Source: Acaryochloris thomasi RCC1774
GTDB lineage: Bacteria > Cyanobacteriota > Cyanobacteriia > Thermosynechococcales > Thermosynechococcaceae
Length of the DNA stretch: 32,000 nucleotides
Direction of reading: 5' to 3'
Assembly: GCF_003231495.1 (NCBI RefSeq)
Contig: NZ_PQWO01000005.1
Coordinates: 1 to 32,000, forward strand
The notes beneath the pieces are model-generated. The model was not told the DNA's origin. It did no database searches and was given only the letters and a program-made list of their open reading frames with translations. Both the position numbers and the translations under genes were made by a program. This document shows, in pieces, positions 3,402 through 20,746 of the stretch. Position 1 is the first letter of the stretch; every line of letters begins with the position of its first letter.

Positions 3402-3608
3402 ATGAACAGCTCATTAAGGCAACGCTCATACACAGGCAAAGACCTCTTTGTTGGCATTGATATTCGTAAACGCACCTACTCAGTTGCAGTGGTGATGGAG
3501 GGAGCGCTGGTCAAGAAATGGCAGACGTTCGCAGACCCAGTGAAGCTGGCCCATCAGCTCATTGCCTATTTCCCTAAAGCCTTACTACAAGGAGCACGAA
3601 ATTTTTGA
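3402..3608 (+). pseudogene. IS110-family transposase, N-terminal stub only (about 60 aa)
   Basis: An AAGGAG Shine-Dalgarno lies 8 nt upstream of ATG 3402. MNSSLRQRSYTGKDLFVGIDIRKRTYSVAVVMEGALVKKWQTFADPVKLAHQLIAYFPKA fits the DEDD_Tnp_IS110 N-terminus (fvGIDvhK..y.vav). Full-length enzymes exceed 300 aa. Similarity stops where the convergent TPR/GT41 gene ends (3585). Confidence 0.6.
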
Positions 3609-6276: not shown

Positions 6277-6326
6277 TTCGGGGAACACAAGCATGACCTA
6301 GACGCGGGGTTTTATAGGTCTTACTC
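6277..6326. promoter_or_regulatory. Conserved paired CGGGG(TTT) element upstream of FG-GAP/RTX gene 1 (copies at 13472-13540 and 17354-17402)
   Basis: 6304-6326 GCGGGGTTTTATAGGTCTTACTC and 17355-17377 GCGGGGTTTTAAAAGTCTTACTG match at 20/23 positions. A second CGGGG lies 26-27 nt away in both (6279 and 6305; 17356 and 17383). The third locus has GGCGGGGTT at 13472 and TTCGGGGG 54 nt later. Function unknown. Confidence 0.4.
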
Positions 6327-6726: not shown

Positions 6727-9396
6727 ATGTCGCAATCATCTTTAGATCTTTCTAGCCTCAACGGCAGTAATGGCTTTGTCATCAACGGCATTGACATATC
6801 TGATCAGTCTGGCTTCTCTGTGAGTGGTGCCGGCGATATTAACGGTGATGGCATTGATGACCTAATTATTGGGGCCTACCTTGCCGACCCCGACAGCACC
6901 AATGCTGCAGGTGAGAGCTATATCGTCTTTGGCAGCAGCAACGGCTTCAACAGCAGCCTCAACCTCTCCGATCTCAATGGCAGCAACGGCTTTACCATTA
7001 ACGGCATTGATATATCTGACCAGTCTGGCTTCTCCGTCAGTAGTGCTGGCGATGTCAACGGAGATGGCATCGATGACCTGATTATTGGGGCCTTTGCCGC
7101 AAATCCCAACGGCAACAACTCAGGTGAGAGCTATGTCGTCTTTGGCAGCAGCAATGGCTTCAGCAGCAGCCTTAACCTCTCCGATCTCAACGGCAGCAAC
7201 GGCTTTACCATTAACGGCATTGATCCAACAGATCAATCTGGCGTTTCCGTGAGCAGTGCTGGCGATGTCAACGGCGATGGCATTGATGACCTGATTATCG
7301 GTGCCAGGGCAGCAAACCCCGATGGCAACACCGTTGCGGGTGAGAGCTATGTTGTCTTTGGTAACAGTAATGGCTTCAGCAGTAGCCTCAACCTGTCCGA
7401 TCTGGACGGTAATGACGGCTTTACGATTAACGGAGTTGATCCATTTGATCAATCGGGTTTCTCCGTCAGCGGCGCCGGGGATATCAATGGTGATGGCATT
7501 GATGATGTCATTATTGGTGCCATGTATGCTGACCCCGATGACAACGATGCTGCAGGCGAGAGCTATGTGGTGTTTGGCAGCAGTAGTGGCTTTGACAGCA
7601 CCCTCAATCTATCGACACTCAACGGGAGTAATGGGTTTGTCATTCACGGCATTGACTCGATGGATCAGTCGGGTCGATCGGTCAGCAACGCCGGGGATAT
7701 TAATGGTGATGGCATTGACGACCTAATTATCGGAGCCTTGGGTGCAGACCCAGATGGCAGTAGTTCTGCAGGTGAGAGCTACGTGGTGTTTGGCAGCAGT
7801 AATGGCTTCAGCAGCACCCTCAATCTATCCGATCTAGATGGCAATAACGGCTTCACAATCAGCGGTATTGATCCATTCGATCAATCGGGGTATTCCGTGA
7901 GCAGTGCTGGGGATGTCAACGGTGACGGCATTGACGACCTGATTATTGGTGCCAGGGCGGCAGGCCCCAATGGCAATCTTGTCGCAGGCGAGAGCTATGT
8001 GGTGTTTGGCAACAGCAATGGCTTCAGCAGCACCCTCAATTTATCCAATATCAATGGCAGCAATGGCTTTGCTATTAACGGTATCAATCTAGAGGACCAA
8101 TCTGGTTTTTCCGTCAGTGGTGCTGGAGATGTCAACGGTGATGGCCTTGATGACCTGATTGTCGGTGCTCCCTATGCTGATCCGGGTGGCAATGGCGCAG
8201 CAGGCGAGAGCTACGTGATCTTTGGCTTTGAAAGCGGAAGCGGAGCGACCGAGGGTCCCGATCAGCTGGTCGGGACGCCGGAGAACGATACCTTAGAAGG
8301 CTTAGCGGGTGATGATCTGATCTCGGGCGGTAACGGTGCTGACGTCCTAGATGGTGGTCTCGACAATGACACTCTCTTGGGAGAAACAGGCAACGACACA
8401 CTCCTCGGTAACGCTGGCCTTGACTTGCTCCAAGGGGGTGGCGGTAGCGACTCCCTGAGCGGAGGGCTAGGTAACGACACCCTTGAGGGACAATCAGGCA
8501 ACGATACACTCCTCGGTGACGCTGGCCTTGACTTGCTCCAAGGGGGTGGCGGAAGTGACTCCCTGAGCGGAGGGCTAGATAACGACACCCTCGAAGGACA
8601 GGGCGGAAACGATACACTCCTCGGTAACGATGGCGCTGACTCACTTCGAGGGGGCAGCGGCAGTGACTCCCTAAGCGGCGGACTCAACAACGACACCCTT
8701 GAAGGACAAGGCGGAAACGATACACTTCTCGGCGGCAGCGGCAATGATTCCCTTATAGGTGCTTCGGGAAGCGATCGCCTGCAGGGCGGCGGCGGTGATG
8801 ATGTTCTCGGTGGCGGTGGCAACAATGACACCCTTGAAGGGCAAGCAGGGAACGATACCCTCCGGGGCAACAGTGGCTTCGATTCTCTCGCGGGCGCAGC
8901 CGGGAATGATCTCCTACAGGGAGGCTTGGCGAATGATTCTCTCAATGGGGGCAGTGACAACGATACCCTTGAAGGACAGTCAGGCTTTGATGTCTTGCTA
9001 GGGGGCAGCGGCAACGACATCCTGGTCGGTGGCTCCAACAATGACACGCTCACGGGCGGTATTGGGGCTGACACCTATCGCTTTGATACGGGCTTTAATA
9101 GTCTAGGTACGGATACGATTACCGACTTTGCCAGTAACGATGTATTGGAGTTAAGCCAGTCCGTCTTTGACTTGGGCGGTGTTGCGGGCACGAATATTGT
9201 TGCCAGTGAGTTTGCTACAGTGAACAGCTTAGTTGCGGCAGAAAATAGTGCAGCGCTGATCGTCTACAACCGCAATACTGGCGATCTGTTCTTCAATGCC
9301 AATGGCTCCGCTGCAGGGTTGGGCACAGGTGGCCAATTCGCTCAGTTGGAGAACAACTTCAATTTGATGGCTGAGCATATTGAGCTGACGGCTTAA
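6727..9396 (+). CDS. Secreted-type giant protein: seven FG-GAP (integrin-alpha-like) repeats + RTX nonapeptide block + conserved C-terminal module
   Basis: 889 aa with no N-terminal signal peptide. Seven ~65-aa repeats each contain S.S.AGD[IV]NGDG[IL]DD[LV]I[IV]GA (about nt 6727-8240). A long run of GGxGxDxLx repeats spans about 8270-9085. The C-terminal block TYRFDTGFNSLGTDTITDF...GGQFAQLENNFNLMAEHIELTA is shared with the three following genes. I see no Cys, Lys or Trp. Confidence 0.9.
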   Translation: MSQSSLDLSSLNGSNGFVINGIDISDQSGFSVSGAGDINGDGIDDLIIGAYLADPDSTNAAGESYIVFGSSNGFNSSLNLSDLNGSNGFTINGIDISDQSGFSVSSAGDVNGDGIDDLIIGAFAANPNGNNSGESYVVFGSSNGFSSSLNLSDLNGSNGFTINGIDPTDQSGVSVSSAGDVNGDGIDDLIIGARAANPDGNTVAGESYVVFGNSNGFSSSLNLSDLDGNDGFTINGVDPFDQSGFSVSGAGDINGDGIDDVIIGAMYADPDDNDAAGESYVVFGSSSGFDSTLNLSTLNGSNGFVIHGIDSMDQSGRSVSNAGDINGDGIDDLIIGALGADPDGSSSAGESYVVFGSSNGFSSTLNLSDLDGNNGFTISGIDPFDQSGYSVSSAGDVNGDGIDDLIIGARAAGPNGNLVAGESYVVFGNSNGFSSTLNLSNINGSNGFAINGINLEDQSGFSVSGAGDVNGDGLDDLIVGAPYADPGGNGAAGESYVIFGFESGSGATEGPDQLVGTPENDTLEGLAGDDLISGGNGADVLDGGLDNDTLLGETGNDTLLGNAGLDLLQGGGGSDSLSGGLGNDTLEGQSGNDTLLGDAGLDLLQGGGGSDSLSGGLDNDTLEGQGGNDTLLGNDGADSLRGGSGSDSLSGGLNNDTLEGQGGNDTLLGGSGNDSLIGASGSDRLQGGGGDDVLGGGGNNDTLEGQAGNDTLRGNSGFDSLAGAAGNDLLQGGLANDSLNGGSDNDTLEGQSGFDVLLGGSGNDILVGGSNNDTLTGGIGADTYRFDTGFNSLGTDTITDFASNDVLELSQSVFDLGGVAGTNIVASEFATVNSLVAAENSAALIVYNRNTGDLFFNANGSAAGLGTGGQFAQLENNFNLMAEHIELTA
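8392..8715 (+). repeat. Three tandem copies of a 108-bp (36-aa = four RTX nonapeptides) unit inside the RTX block
   Basis: The unit starts (AACGA[CT]ACACT[CT]CTCGG) at 8392, 8500, 8608 and 8716, an exact 108-nt period. The encoded units are NDTLLGNAGLDLLQGGGGSDSLSGGLGNDTLEGQSG, NDTLLGDAGLDLLQGGGGSDSLSGGLDNDTLEGQGG and NDTLLGNDGADSLRGGSGSDSLSGGLNNDTLEGQGG. Confidence 0.85.
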
Positions 9397-9482
9397 TTTA
9401 TCCCTGGGCTGGCCATCTTTTACCCACAATATAAATAGTCCGAGAGGATACCTGAACAATCAGATAAAGGTCGTCAGGAGGA

Positions 9483-9562
9483 TTTTGGGTTGCGATCGCA
9501 TCTCCAACTTGCCCCCTCTGCTTAGACAAACATCCTAGATTCCAGAACACATCCCATCGACG
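9483..9562 (-). pseudogene. Decayed copy of the 5' coding region of the TPR/GT41 gene
   Basis: 9483-9507 TTTTGGGTTGCGATCGCATCTCCAA matches 5755-5780 TTTTGGGTTGCGATCGCATCTTCCAA, and similarity continues to CACATC..CGACG. The minus-strand translation GCLSKQRGQVGDAIATQN aligns with MGSLLKQMGRLEDAIATQK of the intact protein. No start codon or long ORF remains. Confidence 0.7.
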
Positions 9563-9930
9563 AGGTCACAGCGCCCCTTATTTGCGCATTGAGTCACAGC
9601 AAGAAATTGCAGCTAGCACTGCAGCGAAGAATATAGCTTCAGTAGTTTTACCAAGATTTCAACCGATACTCTCAACTTATTTCAGTAAAATTCTTGAGGC
9701 TGTCACCCTAAGCCGTTGCCTAAGATGAAAACGGTTACCTAAAGCTAGCCCTCAGCTCTACCTATTTTTACTGATTTCTAAATAATTTTTTGAGCAGCTC
9801 AGTATTTTTTATCAATCGCTAGATTAACCTTCCAACCTGAACGATGCTCGCCATCATCTCAGGTTTTCTAGTCATAGATGTATGACTTAGATCCGTTTGG
9901 CCTAGCCAATTTTCCCACCCAATCTATTAC

Positions 9931-9963
9931 TAATGGCTCAGATCCAGGAGATCTAAGCCATTA
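9931..9963. promoter_or_regulatory. Imperfect 14-bp inverted repeat about 60 bp upstream of the RTX-matrixin start
   Basis: TAATGGCTCAGATC (9931-9944), a 5-nt spacer, then GATCTAAGCCATTA (9950-9963); 13 of 14 positions are complementary. Operator or 5'-UTR hairpin; function unknown. Confidence 0.3.
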
Positions 9964-10006
9964 GCAGTATTGATTTTCAGCTTCTTTAATAAAGGCATTT
10001 AATTTA

Positions 10007-13000
10007 ATGGCAGATAACGCATCTTCTCTATACCGCGCTCTTTTAATTGCCCAAGATTATTTGACCTCCTTTGCTGCCAGCGAAACCTTCACCGACAATT
10101 TGACTACGGCTTTTGGCAGTCTTCTCAACACTTCAACTGCTGCAGAATTTCGACAGCAATGGTTAACCGGTGACTTCAGCGGCATCTCAACGATCAAAGT
10201 CATCTCATCTAGCGACATCAACAGTGCCTTTACCCCCGCAGCCCAAACCATTTACCTCTCTTCAGAATTTCTGACCGCCAACACCGACAATCCTGCCGCC
10301 ATCGCCACAGTGCTGCTAGAAGAGATCGGTCACGCCCTCAATGCCCAGCTCACAGAAAGCAATACAGGCGATGAAGGAGAAGTCTTCGCAACCTTAGTCC
10401 AGGACGTGGAGCCAAGGATCTCCATGCAATTCGAAGCCATCTATGAAAATCCGGGCCTCTTACAAGAAGACCACCACGATGACTTTGAAGAATTCCAAGC
10501 CTCATCAAGATGGACCTCTACTGCAACCAATGGCTCAGGTTTACAGCAAGGCGACCCCACAACCTTAACGTGGAGCATTGTCGCAGACGGCACCTTCATT
10601 CCTGGCTTCAACGGTGAACCCGATGCCAACAGTGACTTAGTTGCATTCTTCAACAACATCTACGGCACCACGGCAGACTGGCTACCGATCTTTAGCAGCG
10701 TCTTTGACCGCTGGAGTGCCCTATCCGGCGTCAACTATGTCTTTGAAGCCAATGATGACGGAGCCGCATTTGGCAGTACCGTAGGACTTGTAGGCAGCCG
10801 TGGCGATGTGCGCATTGGCGGTCACTTTATTGACGGCGAATCGGGTTCCAACACTCTGGCCTACAACTTCTTCCCCAGCAACGGGGAAATGGTCATTGAT
10901 ACCTCTAACTTCAACTTCTATTCCAACACCAACAACAATTCTCTCAGCGTTCGCAATACCCTCGCCCATGAACTGGGACACGGCTTGGGATTAAGTCATG
11001 TCGAATCGAACAACGCCAAATTTTTGCTCGAGCCTTTTATCAGCACCGACTTTGATGGCCCTCAAATTGACGACATTCTAGGCTTACACCGCCTCTATGG
11101 TGATGCCCTCGAATCCAGCACAGGCAACCATAACCAATCCAATGACACTATTGCTGCAGCCACCAACTTAGGGACTGTCAATTCAGGAATGACGGTCTCC
11201 ATCGGCACAGACGCTTCCGATAGCAGCACCGTTGTTGCAGCCAATCAGACCGACTTCGTTAGTATCGACGACAACTCAGATACTGATTTTTATCGATTTG
11301 CGATCGCAAGCCCCTCCGCCATTGACGTCATTCTCAATCCCCGTGGTCCCTCCTACAACCAAGGCCCGCAGGAAGGCGCACAGGCCCTCTTCAACGCCAA
11401 AGCACTCAGCAATTTATCCCTAGCCGTTTTCAACAGCAGCGGCACTCTATTACGGAGCGTCAATAACGCTGCAGCCGGGGAGAGCGAGAGCATTGCAGGT
11501 CTGCAGCTATTGTCTCCGGGAGCCTATTACGTACGGGTAACGGGCAGCGCTAACAATGTGCAGCTCTATGATTTAAGTATTGCAGTCAATGCCAGTTCTG
11601 CATCCAACGATAATTTTGCAGATCGCTTTGTTCTAGCCGGTGAAAACACAGCAACAACCGGCTCTAACATCGGATTCACAGGCGAAACAGGCGAATCTAG
11701 CCAATCCGGTGTTCTTCACTCAGCCTGGTGGAGTTGGACCGCATCCTCGACCGGACAGGCCACCCTTGACACGAATGGCAGCAACTTTAATACCTTCCTA
11801 TCTGTCTTTACGGGCAGCTCAGTCAATAACTTAACGACCATTGGGCAAAACAATAACGGCGGCAACGGCAATCAAAGCCAGCTCAGCTTTACAACGGTCG
11901 CCGGAAGCACTTACCAGATTGCCGTAGATGGCGTCTCTAGCGATCAAGGTAACATTGCGCTCAACCTCAACTTTGCCAACAACGATAGCTTCGCCAATCG
12001 CCTTGCTCTAAGTGGTCAAAATACTAGCGTGACCGGCTCTAACGTCGGTTTCACCGGCGAAGCAGGGGAGTCCGCCCAAAGCGGCACCATCAACTCAGCT
12101 TGGTGGAGCTGGACTGCTGCTGCAACGGGAGAAGTCACGGTCGATACCAACGGGAGTAACTTTGATACCTTCCTATCGGTCTTCACCGGCAATGCAGTGA
12201 ATAGCTTGACAAGCGTAGGGCAAGACGATGATGGCGGCACGAATCTCCAGAGCCTCTTAACGTTCTCAGCCACAGCCGGGACAACGTATCACATCGCGGT
12301 TGATGGCTTCAGCGACAATACAGGCGACATTACGCTGAACCTAGCTCAGAACCTTGAAGGTATCCAACGCCTTGGCACCGGCGGTTCAGATCAGCTTATA
12401 GGTGGTGTCGGAGACGATACCTTAATCGGGTTCGGCGGCAATGACGTGCTATTTGGCGCCAACGGTGGCGACCTATTACGCGGCGGTAGCGGCAACGATG
12501 ACATCAGCGGCAGCGGCGGTATTGACACCCTGCTGGGCGAAGGTGGTCAGGATACCCTCGCAGGCGGTATCGGCGGCGATCAACTACAGGGGGGAAGCGG
12601 TAACGACTCCCTGCGTGGCGAAGCTGATAACGACACCCTACAAGGACAAGGGGGCGGCGACACGCTAATTGGCGGCAGCGGTGACGATTCATTGGTGGGT
12701 GCTTCAGGAAGCGACCTGCTGCAGGGAGGAGGAGATAACGACGTTCTCAGTGGCGGCGGCAATAACGATGTTCTTGCAGGCCAAGCAGGCAACGACACTC
12801 TGATTGGCAACAGTGGCTTGGACATCCTCACGGGACATGCGGGACATGATCTGCTTCAGGGTGGCCTTGCGAATGATGAACTCAATGGCGGCAACGATAA
12901 TGACACGCTCGAAGGCCAAGCGGGCTTCGATATTTTACTCGGCGGCAGCGGCGACGACATTCTGGTGGGTGGCTCGAATAATGACACGCTCACAGGCGGT

Positions 13001-13336
13001 ACCGGGGCCGACACGTTCCGGTTTGACAGTGGCTTCAATCGCCTAGGCGTCGATAGAATTACAGACTTTGCCAATGGCGATGTACTGCAGCTTAGTCAGT
13101 CAATCTTTGGTTTGCTCGGCAGCGCAGGTAGCAACATTATCGCTAGCGAATTTGCCACGGTAGGGAGCTTAGCAGCAGCAGAAAGCAGTACAGCAGTGAT
13201 TGCTTACAACAGCAACGATGGCCGCTTATACTTCAATTCTAACGGAGCAGCAGCTGGGCTAGGTTCGGGAGGCCAGTTTGCCCAGTTAGACAATACTTTT
13301 GATCTAAAGTCCAATCATATTGAACTGATTGCATAG
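10007..13336 (+). CDS. RTX-type secreted zinc metalloprotease: matrixin (M10A/MMP-like) catalytic domain + PPC-like domain + two 125-aa repeats + RTX block + shared C-terminal module
   Basis: 1109 aa. The zinc site HELGHGLGLSH lies at 10967-10999, followed by ...LLEPF...DDILGLHRLYGD, which is matrixin-like spacing. A DFYRF...YYVRV region resembles a pre-peptidase C-terminal domain. Repeats lie at 11606-11980 and 11981-12355. The RTX block spans about 12390-13020. The C-terminus TFRFDSGFNRLGVDRITDF...GGQFAQLDNTFDLKSNHIELIA is homologous to the FG-GAP paralogs. No signal peptide and no Cys. Confidence 0.88.
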   Translation: MADNASSLYRALLIAQDYLTSFAASETFTDNLTTAFGSLLNTSTAAEFRQQWLTGDFSGISTIKVISSSDINSAFTPAAQTIYLSSEFLTANTDNPAAIATVLLEEIGHALNAQLTESNTGDEGEVFATLVQDVEPRISMQFEAIYENPGLLQEDHHDDFEEFQASSRWTSTATNGSGLQQGDPTTLTWSIVADGTFIPGFNGEPDANSDLVAFFNNIYGTTADWLPIFSSVFDRWSALSGVNYVFEANDDGAAFGSTVGLVGSRGDVRIGGHFIDGESGSNTLAYNFFPSNGEMVIDTSNFNFYSNTNNNSLSVRNTLAHELGHGLGLSHVESNNAKFLLEPFISTDFDGPQIDDILGLHRLYGDALESSTGNHNQSNDTIAAATNLGTVNSGMTVSIGTDASDSSTVVAANQTDFVSIDDNSDTDFYRFAIASPSAIDVILNPRGPSYNQGPQEGAQALFNAKALSNLSLAVFNSSGTLLRSVNNAAAGESESIAGLQLLSPGAYYVRVTGSANNVQLYDLSIAVNASSASNDNFADRFVLAGENTATTGSNIGFTGETGESSQSGVLHSAWWSWTASSTGQATLDTNGSNFNTFLSVFTGSSVNNLTTIGQNNNGGNGNQSQLSFTTVAGSTYQIAVDGVSSDQGNIALNLNFANNDSFANRLALSGQNTSVTGSNVGFTGEAGESAQSGTINSAWWSWTAAATGEVTVDTNGSNFDTFLSVFTGNAVNSLTSVGQDDDGGTNLQSLLTFSATAGTTYHIAVDGFSDNTGDITLNLAQNLEGIQRLGTGGSDQLIGGVGDDTLIGFGGNDVLFGANGGDLLRGGSGNDDISGSGGIDTLLGEGGQDTLAGGIGGDQLQGGSGNDSLRGEADNDTLQGQGGGDTLIGGSGDDSLVGASGSDLLQGGGDNDVLSGGGNNDVLAGQAGNDTLIGNSGLDILTGHAGHDLLQGGLANDELNGGNDNDTLEGQAGFDILLGGSGDDILVGGSNNDTLTGGTGADTFRFDSGFNRLGVDRITDFANGDVLQLSQSIFGLLGSAGSNIIASEFATVGSLAAAESSTAVIAYNSNDGRLYFNSNGAAAGLGSGGQFAQLDNTFDLKSNHIELIA

Positions 13337-13951
13337 AGAGTCATTTGCATAACACAACATTTACCAACCTTGAAAGTTCGGACTTTTGGGAATCTATTAT
13401 CTTTAGTCAATTTCAATTGTGTAAAGAACGATATATCTAACTAAATCTGATTAGATACATGCTAAGTTAATGGCGGGGTTACAAAATTTTTGCAAAAATG
13501 TAGGGCAACGCTAGCCTTACTCTTATTCGGGGGATTCGGGTTCTATTGGCTATGGATAATGGACAGAGGTGTCAATAATCCACGGATCTAATTGGGCCTA
13601 CGCAAAAATTTTATCGTTCTGAAATATTGATCTTTGAGCTATACAACAGATGTTCAGATTAAGCTCTGAGCGGATAAAGCACCGTCTGGTACGGCAATGA
13701 GATGCCTTTAATCGTGTACATCCTGCTTTAGCTCTTCTCCAAAGTTCTTCCTAGAAGTGAATAGGCAGATAACTCTCACTGCTTGGGTTTTATTCCCCAA
13801 CGTTGGCATAGTCGAATCCACACCCGTTTTGGTCAGGGAATAGCTTCGACTAGAGCTGCATAAGCAATTTTGGCAGGGAAATACTTCTGAGTAGGGCTGC
13901 ATATATCTTCTCCTTATCTATCTTTTTTCTGGTGTCAGCAAGGCAAAAAAT

Positions 13952-16900
13952 ATGTCTCAATCATCTTTAGATTTTTCGAGCCTTACTGGCAGCAATGGCT
14001 TTGTTATTAGCGGCATTGATGAAAGTGATTATTCAGGCCATTCGGTCAGCGGTGCGGGTGATGTCAACGGTGATGGCATTGACGATCTGATTATCGGCGC
14101 TCCCTTGGCCGACCCCAATGGTAACGAGAGTGCGGGGGAGAGCTATGTGGTATTCGGTGACAGCGGCTTTGATAGCAGCCTTAATCTAGCCAGTCTCGAC
14201 GGTAGCAATGGCTTTGTTATTAGCGGCATTGATGAAAATGATTTTTCCGGTGACTTGGTCAGCGGTGCGGGTGATGTCAACGGTGATGGCATTGACGATC
14301 TGATTATCGGCGCTTCCTTCGCCGACCCCAATGGTAGCGAGAGTGCGGGGGAAAGCTATGTAGTGTTTGGTAGCAGCGGTTTTGATAGCAGCCTTGATCT
14401 CGCAAGTCTTGATGGTAGCAATGGCTTTGTTATCAGCGGCATCGCAACCTTTGATAGGTCAGGCCGTTCGGTGAGCAGTGCTGGTGATGTCAATGGTGAT
14501 GGCATTGACGACCTGATTATCGGGGCCTTCAGGGCGGATCCAGAGGGTATCGATAATGCGGGTCAAAGCTACGTAGTGTTTGGTCACAGCAGTGGTTTTA
14601 GCAGCAGTATCAGTCTTTCAAGCCTGGACGGTAGCAACGGTTTTATCCTGGATGGCCTTAATCCATCTGCTCAAGTCGGTCATTCGGTTAGCAGTGCCGG
14701 TGACATTAACGGTGATGGCATTGACGATCTAATTATTGGTGCACCTGGTGCTATCAACCCAGAGAGTCAAGAGATTAATGGGCAGAGTTATGTAATTTTT
14801 GGTGACAGCAGTGGTTTTGATAGCACCATTGACCTATCAAGCCTTGACGGCAGCAATGGCTTTACCCTCAATGGTATTGATTCCAATACTAACTCTGGCT
14901 ATTCAGTGAGCAGCGCTGGGGATATCAATGGTGATGGCATTGACGACCTAGTTATCGGTGCCCCTTTTGTCAATGTCAATGGCCGCATCAATTACTATGG
15001 CGAGAGCTATGTAGTATTTGGCAACAGCAGTGGTTTTGACAGCAGCATTGATCTGGCAACCCTTAATGGCAGCAATGGCTTTACTCTCAACGGTACTCGT
15101 TTCGAAAGCTTTTCAGGTAGTTTAGTCAGCAGTGCGGGTGACGTCAACGGCGATGGGATTGACGACCTGATTATCCGTGACTATGGCCAGGGCTATGTCG
15201 TATTTGGCAACAGCAGCGGGTTTGATAGCAGTCTCGATCTACGGCGCCTCGACGGTGACAATGGTTTTGTCATTGGCAGAGCGATTGGTTCAGTCAGCAG
15301 CGCGGGGGATATTAATGGTGACGGAATTGACGATTTGATCCTCGGGACATCCGGTGCTGACCCTGATGGCATCGATAATGCGGGCGAAAGCTATGTGGTG
15401 TTCGGCAATGCGTCTCCTGAACTAGATTTGAGTGGGGTAGATAATAGTACCTCTCCCACCAGCATTGACTACGAAGCCATCTTTATCGGCGATCCCTTGG
15501 TGATTGTGGGGACTGGCCTCAGCCTTACGGATGCTAACTCCGACAGGATAGTAGGGGCCACGGTTACGATTACCAACCTTACTAATGGCTTAGCCGAGAG
15601 CCTCAGTGCGATCACGACCGGCACTAATATTACAGCAACCTATGATTCAGGCACCCTCACCCTCAGCGGCACCGATACGGCTGCCAACTATCAGCAAGTC
15701 CTCCAGACCGTCACTTACCAAAATTTGACGCCCACGGGTGCAACACGAACCGTTGAGTTTGTTGTTGACGATGGCGAGACCCATTCCAATAGCAGTGCGA
15801 TCGCAACCACCACCGTGACTTTTGAAGTGGGTGATGCACCGGTTGCCCCTAATGACCGCATTACCGTGAATGAGACCGGTCGCGTCAATGGCAACGTTCT
15901 AGCGGATAACGGCGATGGAGCAGATAGCGACCCGAATGGCGATCTCTTGACGGTCTCTGCCGTCAATGGCCGCGATGCAGATATCAACACTCAAATTACG
16001 CTCCTTTCAGGCGCCTTGCTTACGCTCAATAGCGATGGCACCTTTCAGTATGACCCCAATAATCAATTTGCATCCCTTGCGGCTAGGGAAAACGCCACAG
16101 ATCAATTTACCTACACTGTGACCGATGGCGATGGGGAAACAGATACGGCCACCGTTGACGTTGAAATTAAAGGCTTGGCGGGGGCCTATCGCATTGGTAC
16201 CGCTGGCCAGGATCAGCTTGTGGGAAGCGCCTTTGGGGATACCTTAGAGGGTCTAGCAGCAGATGATGTGCTGATCGGGGGCCGCGGTCGCGATTCTCTA
16301 GCAGGGGGAAGGGGCAACGACTCCCTGAGTGGCGGCAGCGGCAGTGACACTCTCAAAGGCCACGCAGGGAACGATACCCTCCGGGGTGGTGACGGCATTG
16401 ACTGGCTCCAAGGTGGCCGCGGTCACGATTCTCTTGTCGGCGGTCTCAACAACGATACGCTCGAAGGCCAGACAGGCAATGATACGCTCTTGGGCGGCAG
16501 CAATAGTGATGTGCTAATCGGCGGTGCTGGGATTGATGTACTCTACGGGGGACTAGGCAGTGATGTCCTCAGGGGTGGTCAAAATCGCGATACCCTCAAC
16601 GGTCAAGCAGGGAACGATACGCTTGAAGGCCAAGCTGGCTCTGATATTTTGCTGGGCGGCGGCGGGAACGATATTCTCGTGGGTGGCGCGAATAACGATA
16701 CGCTCACGGGCGGTTCTGGAGCTGACACGTTCCAGTTCGATGCGAACTTCAATCGTTTGGGTATCGACACAATTACCGACTTTTCCAGCAACGATGTGCT
16801 GCAGTTAAGCCAGTCCATTTTCGGGTTAAGCGGTGCAGGCGTTACTGAGATTTCTATGCAGGAATTTGCCTCGGTGGGTAGTCTAACTGCGGCTGAGAAT

Positions 16901-17050
16901 AGTAGCGCTTTGATTACCTACAATCGCAATGATGGCAGTTTGTACTTTAATACCAATGGCTCCACTTCTGGGCTGGGTTCAGGGGGTCAGTTCGCTCAGT
17001 TAGACAATGCCTTCGGTCTCACGGCTAGCCATATTGAGCTTGTGAGCTAG
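13952..17050 (+). CDS. FG-GAP (seven repeats) + adhesin-like beta module + VCBS/cadherin-like domain + RTX block + shared C-terminal module
   Basis: 1032 aa. Seven GD[IV]NGDGIDDL repeats span about 13952-15420. A module with ...ITATYDSGTLTLSGTDTAANYQQVLQTVTYQN... spans about 15420-15827. A VCBS-like segment ...DQFTYTVTDGDGETDTATVDVEIKG spans about 15830-16160. RTX repeats span about 16185-16740. The C-terminus matches the paralogs. No signal peptide and no Cys. Confidence 0.9.
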   Translation: MSQSSLDFSSLTGSNGFVISGIDESDYSGHSVSGAGDVNGDGIDDLIIGAPLADPNGNESAGESYVVFGDSGFDSSLNLASLDGSNGFVISGIDENDFSGDLVSGAGDVNGDGIDDLIIGASFADPNGSESAGESYVVFGSSGFDSSLDLASLDGSNGFVISGIATFDRSGRSVSSAGDVNGDGIDDLIIGAFRADPEGIDNAGQSYVVFGHSSGFSSSISLSSLDGSNGFILDGLNPSAQVGHSVSSAGDINGDGIDDLIIGAPGAINPESQEINGQSYVIFGDSSGFDSTIDLSSLDGSNGFTLNGIDSNTNSGYSVSSAGDINGDGIDDLVIGAPFVNVNGRINYYGESYVVFGNSSGFDSSIDLATLNGSNGFTLNGTRFESFSGSLVSSAGDVNGDGIDDLIIRDYGQGYVVFGNSSGFDSSLDLRRLDGDNGFVIGRAIGSVSSAGDINGDGIDDLILGTSGADPDGIDNAGESYVVFGNASPELDLSGVDNSTSPTSIDYEAIFIGDPLVIVGTGLSLTDANSDRIVGATVTITNLTNGLAESLSAITTGTNITATYDSGTLTLSGTDTAANYQQVLQTVTYQNLTPTGATRTVEFVVDDGETHSNSSAIATTTVTFEVGDAPVAPNDRITVNETGRVNGNVLADNGDGADSDPNGDLLTVSAVNGRDADINTQITLLSGALLTLNSDGTFQYDPNNQFASLAARENATDQFTYTVTDGDGETDTATVDVEIKGLAGAYRIGTAGQDQLVGSAFGDTLEGLAADDVLIGGRGRDSLAGGRGNDSLSGGSGSDTLKGHAGNDTLRGGDGIDWLQGGRGHDSLVGGLNNDTLEGQTGNDTLLGGSNSDVLIGGAGIDVLYGGLGSDVLRGGQNRDTLNGQAGNDTLEGQAGSDILLGGGGNDILVGGANNDTLTGGSGADTFQFDANFNRLGIDTITDFSSNDVLQLSQSIFGLSGAGVTEISMQEFASVGSLTAAENSSALITYNRNDGSLYFNTNGSTSGLGSGGQFAQLDNAFGLTASHIELVS

Positions 17051-17055
17051 ATCTT

Positions 17056-17162
17056 TTTTGAGGGTTGCGATCGCATCTCACAGACCACTCCATAATCATG
17101 ATGTATAACAGTAGGCCAAGCCTCTTCTCTTAGACACGTCATCTAAGCATCTACAAACATCC
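17056..17162 (-). pseudogene. Second decayed copy of the TPR/GT41 gene 5' region, split by a ~36-nt insert
   Basis: 17056-17079 TTTTGAGGGTTGCGATCGCATCTC matches 5755-5777. 17116-17162 CCAAGCCTCTTCTCTTAGACACGTCATCTAAGCATCTACAAACATCC matches relic 1 (9504-9555) and the intact gene. The intervening 17080-17115 has no counterpart. Confidence 0.6.
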
Positions 17163-17747
17163 AATCTGGTAAAAGTGAAGTAATTTAGAAATTAGAAAAC
17201 TTAACAGCTATTAGGCACAACTCTCAGAGAGAGAGGTTCCCGTATCGATTGGGGCATCTAAAGGGCAGAAAGCGATTGATGACAGAGCAAGGCTGCCCTC
17301 ATGCAGCTAATTACCGCGATAGTGCCGACTCAAAATATATGTGCTAGGTTGAGTGCGGGGTTTTAAAAGTCTTACTGGAATGCGGGGTTTAATTAATTTT
17401 TTGTGTCGCGGTGTATTGGCAAAAACGTCAATATATTAGTAGGCACAAATTGACCAGTATCAGACTTTTCCATTTCAGAAATATTGTTCTTTGAGGCATC
17501 CACAACCTAGTTGGGGCTGCTCATAATTTGATCAACAGAAGTGCCTGCAACAGTCGCAGAACTTTCACTCAACACAATATTTCTAACTTTAATTTTTTCT
17601 ATAATTTTCCTCCTTCAGCTCGGCAGGTGGACCAACTTTGCTGCTTGGATCTGACCTCAACAATCAGAGTTGCTTAGTCTGAAACAGCTCTGACAGGGAA
17701 ATATTCCTGCCCAATACTGCATCCTTATTTGCCTTTATCCACCTTTA

Positions 17748-17772
17748 TTTCTGGCGTCAGAGAAGCAAAAAC
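17748..17772 (+). promoter_or_regulatory. Conserved leader directly upstream of the three FG-GAP/RTX start codons
   Basis: TTTCTGGCGTCAGAGAAGCAAAAAC-ATG (17748-17772), TTTTTGGCGTCAGAGAGGCAAAAAA-ATG (6702-6726) and TTTCTGGTGTCAGCAAGGCAAAAAAT-ATG (13926-13951). It is absent upstream of the matrixin gene. Confidence 0.5.
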
Positions 17773-20631
17773 ATGGCTCAATCATCTTTAGATCTCTCAA
17801 GCCTCAACGGCAATAATGGCTTTGTCATCAACGGCATTGACATCAATGACACCTCTGGTGACTCCGTCAGCAATGCCGGAGACATCAATGGCGATGGCAT
17901 TGACGACTTGATTATCGGCGCTCCTGCGGCTGACCCCAACGGCGACAACTCCGGCGAGAGCTACGTTGTCTTTGGTAGCTCCAGCGGATTCAGCAGCAGC
18001 CTAAATCTCTCAAGCCTCAACGGCAGCAATGGCTTTGTCATCAACGGCATCGATCAGGACGATAACTCTGGTCGTTCAGTCAGTCGTGCCGGTGACGTCA
18101 ACGGCGACGGCATTGATGACGTTATTATCGGCGCTCCCTTTGCCGACCCCAACGGCAATAGCTCGGGTGAGAGCTACGTCGTATTTGGCAGCTCCAACGG
18201 CTTCAACAGCAGCTTAGATCTCTCAAGCCTCAACGGCAGCAATGGCTTTGTCATTAACGGCGTTGCTCCACTTGACCAATCTGGTCGTTCAGTCAGTCAT
18301 GCAGGTGACGTCAACGGCGACGGCATTGACGATTTTATTATTGGCGCTCCCTTCGCCGACTCCAATGCTGTTAGCTCTGGTGAGAGCTACGTGGTGTTTG
18401 GTCGTTCCGGCGGTTTCGGCAGCAGCTTCAATCTCTCTACACTTGATGGCTCTAATGGCTTTGTCATCAACGGTACGGCACCAGACGACAGTGCGGGTCG
18501 TTCAGTGAGCAGTGCTGGCGATATCAATGGTGACGGAATTGACGACATTATTATCAGCGCCCCCTTCGCCGACCCCAACAACAACGACCAAGCCGGTGAA
18601 AGCTACGTCGTCTTTGGTCGCAGTACCGGATTCAACAGCACCCTGAACCTTTCTGCGCTCAACGGCTCCAATGGTTTTGTCATTAGCGGCATTGATGAGT
18701 ATGACAACTCGGGCCGTTCGGTAAGCAGTGCCGGAGATATCAATGGCGACGGAATTGATGACCTGATTATCGGCGCTCCCTTTGCCGACCCCAACGGTAT
18801 TAGCTCGGGTGAGAGCTACATCGTCTTTGGCAACTCCAACGGCTTTAGCAGTAACCTAGATCTCTCCAGCCTCAACGGCAGCAATGGCTTCATTATCAAC
18901 GGCATCGCTTCGAGAGGGGGAGGAGGCGCGACCGGTGACGAGTCAGGCTATTCAGTCAGCGGTGCCGGAGACGTCAACGGTGACGGCATTGACGACCTGA
19001 TTATCGGCGCTCCCAATGCCAACCTCAGCAATAGCGGCGGTGAAAGTTACGTCGTCTTTGGCAGCTCCAACGGCTTCAACAGCAGCTTAAATCTCTCCGA
19101 TCTCGACGGCAGCAACGGCTTTGTAATTACTGGCACAGATGAGAACGATTTTTCCGGTCACTCAGTCAGCGGTGCCGGAGACGTCAATGGTGATGGAATT
19201 GACGACATTATTGTAGGTGCGCAGGGTGGCGACGCCAATACCAATGACGAGGGTGAAAGCTATGTCATCTTCGGTAACGCGACCCCAGACCTAGACTTAA
19301 ACGGCAACGGTACCGGTGGAATTGACTTCAGCGCCACCTTCACAGGATCTGAAATCCTCGTTGTCGATAGTGATCTAAGCGTAGGGGATGATAACTCAGC
19401 GACCCTGTCTGGGGCCACCGTCAAGATCACAAATCGCCTCAACGGCACTAACGAGCAGCTCAATGCTGACACGACGGGCACCAGCATTACAGCAACATAT
19501 AACGCAAGCACGGGTGTTCTCACCCTCAGCGGCACTGGCACTGCAGCCAACTATCAGCAAGTTCTGCGCACGATCACCTACAGCAACACAGATCCAGTCG
19601 GCCCTTCACGGATTATTGAATTCAGCGTTGATGACGGGGAAGCCCACAGCAACACCAGCCAGGTCGCCGTCACTACCCTAACGTTTGCAGGTCTACCCAC
19701 TTCAGGCCCCGATCAGCTTATCGGAACATCAGGCAACGACACTCTCAAAGGCTTCGCCGGTAACGATCTGATCTCAGGGGGCAACGGCAGCGATCGACTA
19801 GAGGGTGGCATCAACAGCGACACCCTCCAAGGCCAAGGGGGTAATGACACCCTCCTCGGCAACGACGGTATTGACTTACTCCAGGGGGGCAGCGGCAGCG
19901 ACTCCCTCAGCGGAGGACTCAACAACGATACCCTCCAAGGCCAAGGGGGAAGTGACACACTCCAAGGCGACGCCGGCAATGATTCTCTGGTCGGCGCGTC
20001 TGGAGGCGACCTCCTGCAAGGCGGTAGCGGCAACGATACCCTTAGCGGCGGTGGCAATAACGACACCCTCGAAGGGCAGGCGGGCAATGATACGCTCCGT
20101 GCCAACAGTGGTCTCGACTCTCTGGTGGGAGCAGCGGGAAATGATCTACTGCAAGGAGGCTTAGGAAATGACACACTCGACGGCGGCAGTGGTGACGATA
20201 CACTCGAAGGACAGGGGAGCTTTGATGTCTTATTGGGGGGCAGCGGCAACGACATTCTGGTCGGTGGGTTGAATAATGACACACTCACGGGCGGCACGGG
20301 GTCTGATATATTCCGATTTGACACGGGCTTCAACAGCTTAGGCATGGATAAGATCACCGACTTCGCAAGCAATGATGTGCTGGAGTTAAGCAAGTCTGTC
20401 TTTGACTTGAGCGGTGTAGCAGGCGCTAATATTGTTGCCAGTGAGTTTGCCTCAGTGAACAGCCTGACAGCAGCCGGGAACAGTGCAGCGCTGATCGTCT
20501 ACAACCGCAATACTGGCGATCTGTACTTCAACGCCAATGGCTCCGCTGCAGGGCTAGGCTCCGGTGGGCAGTTTGCCGAACTGGACAACACGTTCAACCT
20601 CAGTGCAAATCATATTGAGCTGACGACCTAA
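17773..20631 (+). CDS. FG-GAP (seven repeats) + adhesin-like beta module + RTX block + shared C-terminal module
   Basis: 952 aa. Seven GD[IV]NGDGIDD repeats span about 17773-19270. The module ...ITATYNASTGVLTLSGTGTAANYQQVLRTITYSN... spans about 19280-19690. RTX repeats span about 19700-20320. The C-terminus IFRFDTGFNSLGMDKITDF...GGQFAELDNTFNLSANHIELTT follows. No signal peptide and no Cys. Confidence 0.9.
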   Translation: MAQSSLDLSSLNGNNGFVINGIDINDTSGDSVSNAGDINGDGIDDLIIGAPAADPNGDNSGESYVVFGSSSGFSSSLNLSSLNGSNGFVINGIDQDDNSGRSVSRAGDVNGDGIDDVIIGAPFADPNGNSSGESYVVFGSSNGFNSSLDLSSLNGSNGFVINGVAPLDQSGRSVSHAGDVNGDGIDDFIIGAPFADSNAVSSGESYVVFGRSGGFGSSFNLSTLDGSNGFVINGTAPDDSAGRSVSSAGDINGDGIDDIIISAPFADPNNNDQAGESYVVFGRSTGFNSTLNLSALNGSNGFVISGIDEYDNSGRSVSSAGDINGDGIDDLIIGAPFADPNGISSGESYIVFGNSNGFSSNLDLSSLNGSNGFIINGIASRGGGGATGDESGYSVSGAGDVNGDGIDDLIIGAPNANLSNSGGESYVVFGSSNGFNSSLNLSDLDGSNGFVITGTDENDFSGHSVSGAGDVNGDGIDDIIVGAQGGDANTNDEGESYVIFGNATPDLDLNGNGTGGIDFSATFTGSEILVVDSDLSVGDDNSATLSGATVKITNRLNGTNEQLNADTTGTSITATYNASTGVLTLSGTGTAANYQQVLRTITYSNTDPVGPSRIIEFSVDDGEAHSNTSQVAVTTLTFAGLPTSGPDQLIGTSGNDTLKGFAGNDLISGGNGSDRLEGGINSDTLQGQGGNDTLLGNDGIDLLQGGSGSDSLSGGLNNDTLQGQGGSDTLQGDAGNDSLVGASGGDLLQGGSGNDTLSGGGNNDTLEGQAGNDTLRANSGLDSLVGAAGNDLLQGGLGNDTLDGGSGDDTLEGQGSFDVLLGGSGNDILVGGLNNDTLTGGTGSDIFRFDTGFNSLGMDKITDFASNDVLELSKSVFDLSGVAGANIVASEFASVNSLTAAGNSAALIVYNRNTGDLYFNANGSAAGLGSGGQFAELDNTFNLSANHIELTT

Positions 20632-20693
20632 AGCATCTCTGAGGCACTAGCGCCAGCTCTCCCTGCGATGACAACATTCTGCCCCAAACAGAA

Positions 20694-20715
20694 AGCCAGC
20701 CCTAGCGGGCTGGCT
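20694..20715 (-). terminator. Rho-independent terminator for the small secreted-protein gene 20747-21136 (also closes the convergent RTX gene)
   Basis: A perfect 9-bp stem AGCCAGCCC / GGGCTGGCT with loop TAGC. On the minus strand it is followed by TTTCTGTTTGG. Confidence 0.65.
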
Positions 20716-20746
20716 CAGAAAAATGAATGGGAAGCGCTACTGAGGG

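Follow-up and report, generated by a model that had tools for sequence, protein, structure and literature searches.

The window analyzed here, a stretch of 32,000 nucleotides from Acaryochloris thomasi RCC1774, contains four open reading frames on the plus strand, which we call G1 (6727–9396, 889 aa), G2 (10007–13336, 1109 aa), G3 (13952–17050, 1032 aa) and G4 (17773–20631, 952 aa). These coordinates and lengths are exactly those of the first-pass annotation, which described the proteins as giants. This label is not appropriate: RTX proteins have a mean length of about 1600 aa in a published survey (PMC3034196). The G1 protein is identical to P0161 (NCBI, A. thomasi RCC1774), and the G4 protein to PZD73398.1 / WP_110985857.1 from the same strain. 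All four contain HemolysinCabind repeats (PF00353, 7–12 stretches per protein, E 1e-38 to 1e-58) and end in a 110 aa tail. The tails are found on the plus strand at 9064–9393 in G1 (ending in ..AEHIELTA), 13004–13333 in G2 (..SNHIELIA), 16718–17047 in G3 (..ASHIELVS) and 20299–20628 in G4 (..ANHIELTT). Another A. thomasi protein, P0004 (PZD74996.1), also carries a tail of this type.

Each reading frame opens at the first possible start codon past the upstream stop, so that there is no hidden N-terminal signal peptide. In fact, none of the N-termini has a basic residue within its first 15 aa or a hydrophobic core, in agreement with the lack of signal peptides noted in the first-pass annotation. 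Three of the proteins open with M[SA]QSSLD[LF]SSL.G.NGF, as also noted there.

The composition of these proteins is unusual. No cysteine is found in their 3982 residues, while it amounts to 1.10% in 13 neighbouring proteins of the window; the probability of finding none by chance is about 1e-19. G1 also lacks lysine (P about 1e-14) and tryptophan, and there are 10 lysines in the whole set. Each protein has 124–145 acidic residues (D+E) versus 8–27 basic ones (K+R), and the computed pI is at the lower limit of the calculator. The description of the proteins as acidic and Cys-free, with neither Lys nor Trp in G1, is therefore correct. RTX proteins are acidic, secreted by type I secretion systems (T1SS) and most abundant in cyanobacteria, and their S-layer and lipase classes have no cysteine (PMC3034196).

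The N-terminal parts of G1, G3 and G4 contain seven FG-GAP stretches each (PF01839, E 1e-49 to 6e-58) and seven D[IV]NGDG calcium loops. From these features they are predicted to be seven-blade beta-propellers of the integrin-alpha type, as had been proposed. In G1 the propeller (aa 1–~499, nt 6727–8223) is directly followed by the RTX beta-roll (aa ~500–779, nt 8224–9063) and the tail (aa 780–889). In G3 and G4 the seven blades are followed by a beta module of ~130 aa with no assigned family (our repeat family D13). G3 also has a Big_9/Cadherin_4 domain (aa 618–740). The RTX repeats are found at nt ~16184–16717 in G3 and ~19690–20298 in G4, in both cases before the tail.

The FG-GAP propeller family contains 7992 proteins at E<=1e-20. 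Among the ~120 best FG-GAP-RTX homologues, the majority are Cys-free, and the majority also begin within blade 1, as M..NLSDLNGSNGF. Proteins with FG-GAP, Big_9/cadherin and RTX regions are found in the cyanobacteria Nostoc, Coleofasciculus and Synechococcus PCC 7335, and also in Nitrosomonas and Sulfitobacter; they are annotated as 'FG-GAP repeat protein', 'putative outer membrane adhesin' or 'tandem-95 repeat protein'. They share with the window proteins the propeller (50–72% identity), the start in blade 1, the lack of cysteine, the low lysine content and the RTX repeats. On the other hand, most of them have 1200–1550 aa, with more Ig-like or cadherin modules, and they end in ..TLTAANFTIV or ..LTEADFTIIG, with no match to the profile of the window tails: the FG-GAP cargo of the Nostoc, Nitrosomonas and Sulfitobacter homologues is joined to different tails. 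The genomic context of a PCC 7335 homologue consists only of mobile elements. Abundant FG-GAP proteins have been described in the exoproteome of a Nostoc (PMC5702739) and in extracellular fractions of Leptolyngbya (PMC9003413), which we compare with the window genes by domain name.

The three propeller proteins probably serve in binding or adhesion, at the cell surface or in the matrix. It appears quite doubtful that they are subunits of an S-layer or a fibrous surface coat, like SwmA, Sll1951 or RsaA, still exported by a T1SS, instead of soluble exoproteins or adhesins. Some data agree with this idea: RTX S-layer proteins are also acidic, Cys-free and abundant (PMC3034196), RsaA is found among both the fold and the profile matches of our proteins, the homologue P0212 is annotated as 'S-layer family protein', and a fibrous outer layer of about 15 nm has been reported to cover the cells of RCC1774 (PMC6002478). 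Nevertheless, the lattice-forming parts of known S-layer proteins show no similarity in sequence to ours, and three diverged paralogues accompanied by a protease do not resemble the usual single, highly expressed S-layer gene.

The protease is G2. After an N-terminal extension of ~160 aa, which matches no family in Pfam/domain scans, it has an M10 metzincin core (aa ~160–400, nt 10484–11206; Peptidase_M10, PF00413, E 1.2e-10, 41.9 bits with a cut-off of 24), three PPC domains (aa ~440–790, nt 11324–12376), RTX repeats (nt ~12374–13003) and the tail. The zinc-binding motif HELGHGLGLSH (HExxHxxGxxH, which includes the catalytic Glu) is located at 10967–10999 on the plus strand (aa 321–331). Both the family match and the zinc site agree with the matrixin catalytic domain assigned to one of the genes, and G2 is predicted to code for a single M10/PPC zinc metalloprotease, not of the serralysin type. 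The cysteine-switch propeptide of MMPs is absent, as the protein has no Cys. Alignment with homologues also shows that the conserved methionine of the Met-turn, downstream of the zinc site, is replaced by leucine: G2 and its close orthologues have LLEP, most homologues LMEP. Leucine is tolerated at this position. The title of PDB entry 1GO8 corresponds to the M226L mutant of PrtC.

Two orthologues of G2, P0002 (66% identity) and P0278 (69%), cover 99% of its first 530 aa. Metalloproteases of the matrixin family with M10 and PPC domains, found in Planctomycetota and Acidobacteriota, are 45–57% identical to G2 over residues ~160–530; they share its HExxHxxGxxH site, and their mature domain also begins with SRW..TATDG. 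An N-terminal signal peptide, lacking in G2, is present in most of them, and in several the C-terminal end is PEP-CTERM (PF07589), dockerin or Calx-beta; G2 differs in its 160 aa leader with no signal peptide, its RTX-plus-tail end and the leucine at the Met-turn. Of 118 proteins homologous to the G2 core, 87 begin with a signal-peptide-like segment; several carry PEP-CTERM or dockerin, and RTX repeats are found in only a few. Since most of these homologues have a Sec signal peptide and other anchors, the export module appears to have been exchanged. Scanning metagenomes with the G2 cargo yielded distant matches only, several of them limited to the PPC region, and no new synteny. We consider G2 a clear natural case of an enzyme refitted for another export route, with RTX plus tail in place of Sec, PEP-CTERM or dockerin, which is of practical interest for secretion engineering in cyanobacteria.

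The C-terminal regions of the four proteins are closely related. The first-pass annotation described the same C-terminal block, about 110 aa long, in all of them. Alignment confirms the shared block but not its limits: the whole of the last ~300 aa, RTX repeats plus tail, can be aligned, with 63–78% identity. Over the last 112 columns of this alignment the identity is 66–82%. Compared in pairs, the tails are 66–83% identical in protein and 66–80% in DNA, and 59 of their 110 columns are invariant. Recent gene conversion within the array, instead of old ancestry under selection, is a very improbable cause of this likeness. The tail of the G2 orthologue P0002 is slightly closer to those of G3 (73%) and G4 (70%) than to that of G2 (66%), which could reflect exchange between paralogues, but a firm tree cannot be built from differences this small. 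The moderate identity within the array argues against conversion, and so does the fact that its tails resemble those of a related metagenomic organism at least as much as they resemble one another: the upstream tail of its locus L032 is 75% identical to that of G4.

A word-index search with a single tail found no homologues, and an exhaustive profile search was needed. The profile of the four tails matches 3411 representatives at E<=1e-3, which means at least 3411 clusters at 50% identity. At E<=1e-10 there are 653, all of which span the 110 positions, and the best E is 1e-55. The tail is thus a widespread module, and neither exclusive to these four genes nor an invention of the locus. The last ~110 aa do define a family, with varied N-terminal cargos. 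RTX repeats are present in 60 of the 61 family members we scanned, and their cargos include Calx-beta, FG-GAP, M10, GH5 cellulase, phytase-like, 5'-nucleotidase, VWA, PKD and cadherin domains. At least 30 different Pfam cargos are joined to the tail; together with the FG-GAP cargo on other tails and the G2 core with Sec signals and PEP-CTERM, dockerin or Calx-beta ends, this supports the cargo-swapping family suggested initially. The window tails end in HIEL.., while [DN]F.[IV].. is commoner in the family.

No Pfam or NCBIfam model covers the tail in the window proteins. In the NCBIfam scan there is no match at E<=0.01 to the T1SS C-terminal target domain of the TIGR03661 type (VC_A0849 subclass). 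The window tails do not match the serralysin C-terminal domain (PF08548), which is found in 3 of the 61 family members. We have treated the window tail as a distant relative of PF08548 and of the AlgE R-module, not as a member, on the basis of sequence and model comparisons. With a curated model of this family, T1SS substrates could be predicted better across whole genomes, above all those of cyanobacteria, in which proteins of the family are abundant and mostly uncharacterised.

Structure prediction with a single sequence gave a pLDDT of 54.9 for the last 185 aa, and an alignment-based run was used instead. With an alignment of 40 sequences, AlphaFold2 predicts a domain with a pLDDT of 96.5 and a pTM of 0.92, in which the beta-roll turns pass into a capped domain, with HIEL as its final strand. 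In a Foldseek comparison with the PDB, the best matches of the last 165 aa are AlgE6 R-modules, Pseudomonas MIS38 lipase, CyaA RTX block V, PrtC/serralysin and RsaA (TMq 0.55–0.59), all of them T1SS substrates. Profile alignments with serralysins in the PDB reach position ~130 of 170; for the last ~40 tail residues, no PDB sequence gives a match. The model indicates that the tail is a real folded domain. The opposite possibility, a generic low-complexity RTX sequence with no family-specific conservation, was given as a refuting case in the first-pass annotation and may practically be dismissed. It is true that the first ~40 residues (F.F....G.D.ITDF...D.L.LS) resemble the last turn of many RTX proteins, and the empty word-index search and the absence of a Pfam or NCBIfam model also fit this idea. 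However, the invariant columns, the E values of the profile search and the confident fold model all refute it.

The tail may mainly be a structural or ligand-binding R-module, which caps the beta-roll and perhaps tethers the protein to exopolysaccharide or to the cell surface; the secretion signal would then be the last few residues at most. AlgE epimerase R-modules bind their polysaccharide substrate. The R-modules of AlgE4 and AlgE6 are the best matches in sequence and fold, and the entire tail, including its last strand, is predicted to be folded. In some relatives (P0003, P0019, P0030, P0071) the domain is internal, with 2–6 complete copies which end in ..ATDIEVV.. and are followed by more protein, and therefore the whole domain cannot be only a secretion signal. 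On the other hand, the tail is at most 12 aa from the C-terminus in 123 of the 149 top matches, a position not required of a pure binding module. Of these 123 matches, 91 are Cys-free and 70 end with acidic followed by hydrophobic residues. We consider the R-module role possible, although rather unlikely as the main one; it refines the secretion reading and does not exclude it.

The four genes probably code for substrates of a T1SS located elsewhere in the A. thomasi genome. The type I reading of the first-pass annotation is supported by the RTX repeats, the lack of signal peptides, the acidic and Cys-free composition, the conserved extreme C-terminus, the tail family, its predicted fold and the linkage to T1SS genes in other genomes, from which we infer actual export. 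Indirectly, the conserved [HQ]IEL.. end, the family of C-terminal tails and the fold shared with known substrates suggest that an uncleaved secretion signal may lie in the last ~50–60 residues.

As stated in the first-pass annotation, the window has no ABC exporter, MFP or TolC: Pfam scans of 15 other ORFs were negative, as was phmmer with T1SS ABC, MFP and OEP queries against all six-frame ORFs. The weight given to this absence was overstated: it is no puzzle, since T1SS genes not linked to those of their substrates are nothing unusual. A tail gene in each of three proteobacterial genomes is found within a few kb of genes for a T1SS ABC and an HlyD-type adaptor. In one of them (L014) it is directly followed by a PrtD-type ABC (TIGR01842, 674 bits with a cut-off of 510) and an HlyD adaptor (TIGR01843, 388 versus 209). 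In another (L012), genes for a TolC-like OEP, an ABC and an HlyD-like MFP are divergent from that of an M10-RTX-tail protein, and in the third (L031) an ABC and an HlyD adaptor (376 bits) are near the tail gene. Linkage of this kind was seen in Proteobacteria alone; in about 10 cyanobacterial loci with a tail gene, no ABC gene paired with an MFP gene was found within 10 kb.

Two further ABC genes were rejected. The ABC exporter 5 kb from the array of locus L033, in the related metagenomic organism, belongs to the HepA family of polysaccharide exporters and is not part of a T1SS. In Crinalium (L022), the ABC beside the tail gene scores below every T1SS cut-off and lacks an adjoining adaptor. 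The tail match in Sinorhizobium pSymB is not the T1SS substrate ExpE1 but a 1072 aa 'calcium-binding protein' in an unrelated neighbourhood, and therefore gives no experimental anchor.

If secretion takes place in this way, the proteins would be made with no signal peptide and no cysteine, and would stay unfolded in the low-calcium cytoplasm, as the RTX repeats and every FG-GAP blade would need Ca2+ for folding. The ABC/MFP/TolC machine would recognise the C-terminal region and export the chain with its C-terminus leading. On reaching seawater (about 10 mM Ca2+), the 110 aa tail would probably fold first, as a beta-roll cap, the RTX repeats would then stack on it, and the N-terminal cargo would presumably be the last to fold.

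The propeller genes probably derive from an old tandem duplication, and the protease core, Sec-exported in most other lineages, would have been fused to the same RTX-plus-tail module. The array would be older than the split from the related metagenomic organism, where L032 and L033 have the order [tail gene] - M10-RTX-tail - FG-GAP-RTX-tail. FG-GAP and Matrixin domains are found in one polypeptide in the JGI protein P0188. This conserved order and this fusion lend slight support to a speculative idea, which we think is probably not correct: propellers and matrixin-like protease would be a single co-secreted unit, in which the protease processes the propellers or both act on one surface or matrix ligand. 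Such a unit, maintained as an array and now and then fused into a single protein, would be the bacterial equivalent of the integrin/MMP pairing.

A G-rich upstream element is common to the three propeller genes. In G1 (6277–6311, plus strand, 423 nt before the ATG) it is a direct repeat, cttcGGGGaac ... GCGGGGTT, 27 nt apart. In G3 (13473–13507, plus strand, 479 nt before the ATG) it appears as GCGGGGTT ... GtaGGGca, and in G4 (17355–17389, plus strand, 418 nt before the ATG) as two copies of GCGGGGTT separated by 19 nt. It has no counterpart at the protease gene G2, which argues against strict co-regulation of propellers and protease. The window also contains the gene of an OmpR-type regulator, at 2662–3339. 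An Rfam scan of the window found no known RNA, and promoter and terminator scans of the window were at chance level. A hairpin at 20693–20716 was rejected as G4 terminator, as its T-run is on the minus strand.

Apart from the tail family and the refitting of G2, there is nothing out of the ordinary in this group of paralogous RTX exoproteins, a kind of protein which is common and well known in cyanobacteria. A single T1SS serving several genes has been proposed elsewhere: the PrsDE system of Rhizobium leguminosarum is thought to serve scattered paralogous Ca2+-binding exoproteins and enzymes which share a module (PMC9298526, PMC2275737). Its substrates, the Rap proteins and PlyA/B, resemble our proposal in their unlinked genes and common module. 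Going by the descriptions in these papers, that module is a Ra/cadherin-like domain, which sets them apart from the window proteins.

T1SS RTX exoproteins, such as serralysin/AprA/PrtC, family I.3 lipases, CyaA block V and RsaA, also have a GGxGxD beta-roll with a C-terminal capping region, lack a signal peptide, are acidic and Cys-free, and give the best fold match to the last 165 aa. The profile alignment with serralysins takes in the RTX repeats and, beyond them, about two thirds of the tail. Proteases of the serralysin/AprA/PrtC kind end in D-hydrophobic, while the window tails end in [HQ]IEL... The window proteins also differ in their cargos, FG-GAP propellers and a non-serralysin M10/PPC protease, and in having no adjoining secretion operon or inhibitor gene.

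The R-modules of the AlgE mannuronan C5-epimerases of Azotobacter vinelandii (PDB 2AGM, 2ML1-3) are the top match by sequence (E 1.3e-6 with one tail, 3e-19 with the profile) and also by fold (E 3.6e-5). The window proteins have no epimerase A-module, and identity is about 25–28%. AlgE proteins and some relatives of the window tail contain several internal copies of the unit, while each window protein has a single copy at its very end. In any case, the unit is built in the same way in both, RTX turns plus a non-repeat C-terminal part.

Re-calling the ORFs gives exactly the positions proposed in the first-pass annotation: G1 (6727-9396, 889 aa), G2 (10007-13336, 1109 aa), G3 (13952-17050, 1032 aa) and G4 (17773-20631, 952 aa), all on the + strand. 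Each begins at the first start codon past the upstream stop, so a missed signal peptide is impossible. Translation confirms the reported lack of cysteine (0 in 3982 residues) and the absence of lysine and tryptophan from G1; the four proteins contain only 10 lysines in total. With 13 other proteins of the window as background (1.10% Cys, 3.67% Lys), the chance of finding no cysteine in all four is about 1e-19, and that of no lysine in G1 about 1e-14.

The proposed domains are upheld by Pfam. G1, G3 and G4 have seven FG-GAP stretches each, with a D[IV]NGDG calcium loop in every blade, G3 has an additional Big_9/Cadherin_4 domain, G2 contains Peptidase_M10 and three PPC stretches, and HemolysinCabind gives strong matches in all four. 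A beta-rich module of ~130 aa follows the propeller in both G3 and G4, ahead of the next domain (15400-15800, residues ~480-615 of G3; 19290-19690, residues ~505-640 of G4), with the pattern ..TLTLSGT.TAANYQQVL.T.TY.N.. and no Pfam match; the corresponding DNA repeat, D13, is 81% identical between copies. G4 is identical to PZD73398.1 / WP_110985857.1 of Acaryochloris thomasi RCC1774, and G1 to another RCC1774 protein from the same 353-kb contig. These records are called "Bifunctional hemolysin/adenylate cyclase" by the depositor and "FG-GAP repeat protein" by RefSeq; the genome paper does not discuss these proteins (PMC6002478). The exact G2 protein is absent from the protein and contig collections, which do include its contig neighbours G1 and G4, and G2 is not among the matches to its own first 530 aa. 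It may be annotated in the public record with another start or as a pseudogene.

The shared end of the four proteins is well conserved, as had been claimed (66-82% identity over the last 112 alignment columns), but it is not limited to about 110 aa: RTX repeats and tail align over the last ~300 residues, with 63-78% identity. The DNA of the C-terminal copies (repeat families D10 and D11) is 66-80% identical. No Pfam or NCBIfam model matches the last 110 residues, which we call the tail, and a word-index search with it finds no homologue. An exhaustive HMMER search with a profile built from the four tails gives 3411 representatives (50% clusters) at E<=1e-3; of these, 653 reach E<=1e-10 and 10 reach E<=1e-30, most matches covering the full profile. 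The tail thus defines a family, as the first-pass annotation suggested checking, and it carries many cargos. Among the best 150 matches, 123 of 149 have no more than 12 residues between the end of the domain and the C-terminus; 91 of these 123 proteins lack cysteine, 74 finish with a [DN]F motif (for example ..ASDFVIQA), and 70 have acidic followed by hydrophobic residues in the last eight positions. Tails ending in [HQ]IEL.. form a small subgroup: G1-G4, a few metagenomic proteins and a fifth tail protein of A. thomasi, the VCBS protein P0004, which is encoded on a different contig. RTX repeats are present in 60 of the 61 full-length tail proteins scanned, whose cargos include Calx-beta, FG-GAP, M10, GH5 cellulase, phytase-like esterase, 5'-nucleotidase, VWA, PKD, cadherin, CHRD and DUF4347. 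The novelty of the domain is modest: It is uncurated, yet very widespread. Low lysine (0-0.5%) is found in many tail-family and FG-GAP-RTX proteins of unrelated bacteria. Lysine avoidance reaches well beyond this locus, and the sole account offered for it is acidic charge.

Two independent lines support the idea of exchanged N-terminal cargos. The first is given by the propellers. G1 has 7992 relatives at E<=1e-20; most of the ~120 best are Cys-free with low lysine and start in blade 1 with M..NLSDLNGSNGF. These proteins, from Nostoc, Coleofasciculus, Synechococcus PCC 7335, Nitrosomonas and Sulfitobacter, have other tails (..TLTAANFTIV, ..LTEADFTIIG), to which our tail profile is blind. The second is the protease. 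Residues ~160-530 of G2 belong to a large matrixin/PPC family, found mostly in Planctomycetota and Acidobacteriota, in which a signal-peptide-like N-terminus directly precedes the conserved SRW..TATDG start in 87 of 118 members. RTX repeats occur in only a handful, and several members finish with PEP-CTERM, dockerin or Calx-beta. G2 and its orthologues P0002 and P0278 instead combine an RTX-plus-tail end with a 160-aa leader that lacks a signal peptide. The leader (10007-10490 in G2) matches no family and is common to these three proteins alone; it may be a propeptide standing in for the signal peptide of its relatives. G2 is a plain natural case of a Sec-type protease adapted to RTX export, of modest novelty. 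In G2 and its close orthologues the metzincin Met-turn methionine is replaced by leucine (LLEP; 10967-11050, aa 321-348), a form found in ~22 of 120 homologues, the others having LMEP.

Two contigs of a related metagenomic organism (L032 and L033) present the order [gene ending in the tail ..SASDIELTT] - M10-RTX-tail - FG-GAP-RTX-tail, followed by unrelated genes. The protease is 66% identical to G2 (first 530 aa) and the propeller 74% identical to G1. The two organisms therefore split only after the fusion, and after the array had formed at least in part. Tails are no more similar within the window than between both organisms, with no sign of recent homogenization.

As had been noted, the window contains no ABC exporter, membrane-fusion protein or TolC. 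We surveyed 31 loci with a tail relative in cyanobacteria, Alpha-, Beta- and Gammaproteobacteria and Chlorobi, and type I secretion (T1SS) genes lie beside the tail gene in three. In L014 (Betaproteobacteria) it is directly followed by a PrtD-type ABC (TIGR01842, 674 bits, cut-off 510) and an HlyD adaptor (TIGR01843, 388 bits, cut-off 209). In L012 (Sphingomonadales) a TolC-like OEP, an LssB-like ABC and an HlyD-like protein are divergent from an M10-RTX-Big_5-tail gene, and L031 (Terasakiella) has an ABC and an HlyD adaptor (376 bits). No ABC-adaptor pair is found within 10 kb of the cyanobacterial tail loci, the window included. The classical RTX operons lack tolC, which lies elsewhere, and not every structural gene shares an operon with B and D (PMC3034196). 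Unlinked substrates are normal, so the missing genes are not anomalous. An ABC located 5 kb downstream of the array in L033 (11206-13044) was considered as a T1SS part; it belongs to the HepA family (886 bits, cut-off 725) and is a polysaccharide exporter instead.

The window also encodes a PAS histidine kinase, an OmpR regulator (2662-3339), PheS, GlmS, LrgAB, a Crp regulator, a globin, a fasciclin protein, ChpXY and a TPR-GT41 glycosyltransferase (3585-5987, - strand), divergent from G1; the gene content marks the DNA as cyanobacterial chromosome. GT41 also includes OGT and the HMW1C adhesin N-glycosyltransferases. G1-G4 have 22-32 N-x-S/T sequons each, counting RTX "GNDTL" turns, and their cytoplasmic glycosylation by this enzyme is conceivable as a candidate idea; the sequon count may be a mere effect of N/S/T-rich composition. 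The window has four copies of the element GCGGGGTT, all of them on the + strand and 390-480 nt 5' of G1, G3 or G4 (6277-6311, 13473-13507, 17355-17389), never upstream of G2; four matches are reached in none of 100 shuffles. Each site is preceded by tatatRtgYtaRRtt and has a G-rich partner copy at a distance of 27 nt; the three propeller genes share a 30-nt leader directly 5' of the ATG. The element is a candidate promoter or regulator site common to these genes, for which the OmpR-type protein would be an obvious suspect.

The array had been described accurately, and its interpretation is supported by the tail family, the fold, T1SS linkage elsewhere and cargo exchange. What has been observed in favour of the proposed mechanism are the sequence features, the family and its distribution, the predicted fold, linkage elsewhere and synteny. 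Our guess is that the propellers bind surface or matrix and that G2 is proteolytic; a functional pairing of both is possible, with modest novelty. P0188 (JGI, 1345 aa) is annotated with both FG-GAP repeats and Matrixin, so that one polypeptide joins both cargo types of the array. FG-GAP proteins, tied to G1, G3 and G4 by family name, abound in a Nostoc exoproteome (PMC5702739), as they do in extracellular fractions from Leptolyngbya boryana (PMC9003413). Cyanobacteria are known to have the largest numbers of RTX exoprotein paralogues, Acaryochloris marina having up to 28 (PMC3034196), and FG-GAP-RTX proteins number in the thousands: The array as such is ordinary.

From RTX/T1SS knowledge (PMC3034196), the chains would remain unfolded in the cytoplasm, exit C-terminus first via an ABC/MFP/TolC channel and fold outside the cell, beginning with the tail cap and proceeding towards the N-terminus. 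With a calcium loop in every blade, the propeller cargo would be calcium-dependent too. This reading also draws on the ratchet, driven by Ca2+, that is described for CyaA. An AlphaFold2 model of the last 165 residues of G1 (40-sequence alignment; mean pLDDT 96.5, pTM 0.92) has six short-strand RTX turns leading into a compact domain with more strands and two short helices, HIEL being the final strand. Foldseek against the PDB matches solely RTX modules of known T1SS substrates (TM-scores 0.55-0.59): AlgE6 R-modules, Pseudomonas MIS38 lipase, CyaA RTX block V, PrtC, serralysins and alkaline protease, and RsaA. Some relatives (P0003, P0019, P0029, P0030, P0053, P0071) have two to six internal copies of the domain, each ending in ..ATDIEVV.., like the R-modules of AlgE epimerases. 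The domain as a whole must therefore be a structural unit capping the beta-roll, and the export signal can reside only in a terminal copy. When the profile is run against PDB sequences, serralysins align to profile position ~130 of 170 and AlgE R-modules to ~104. The tail is therefore distantly related to the C-terminal domain of serralysins and to the R-module of AlgE, and lies outside any curated family.
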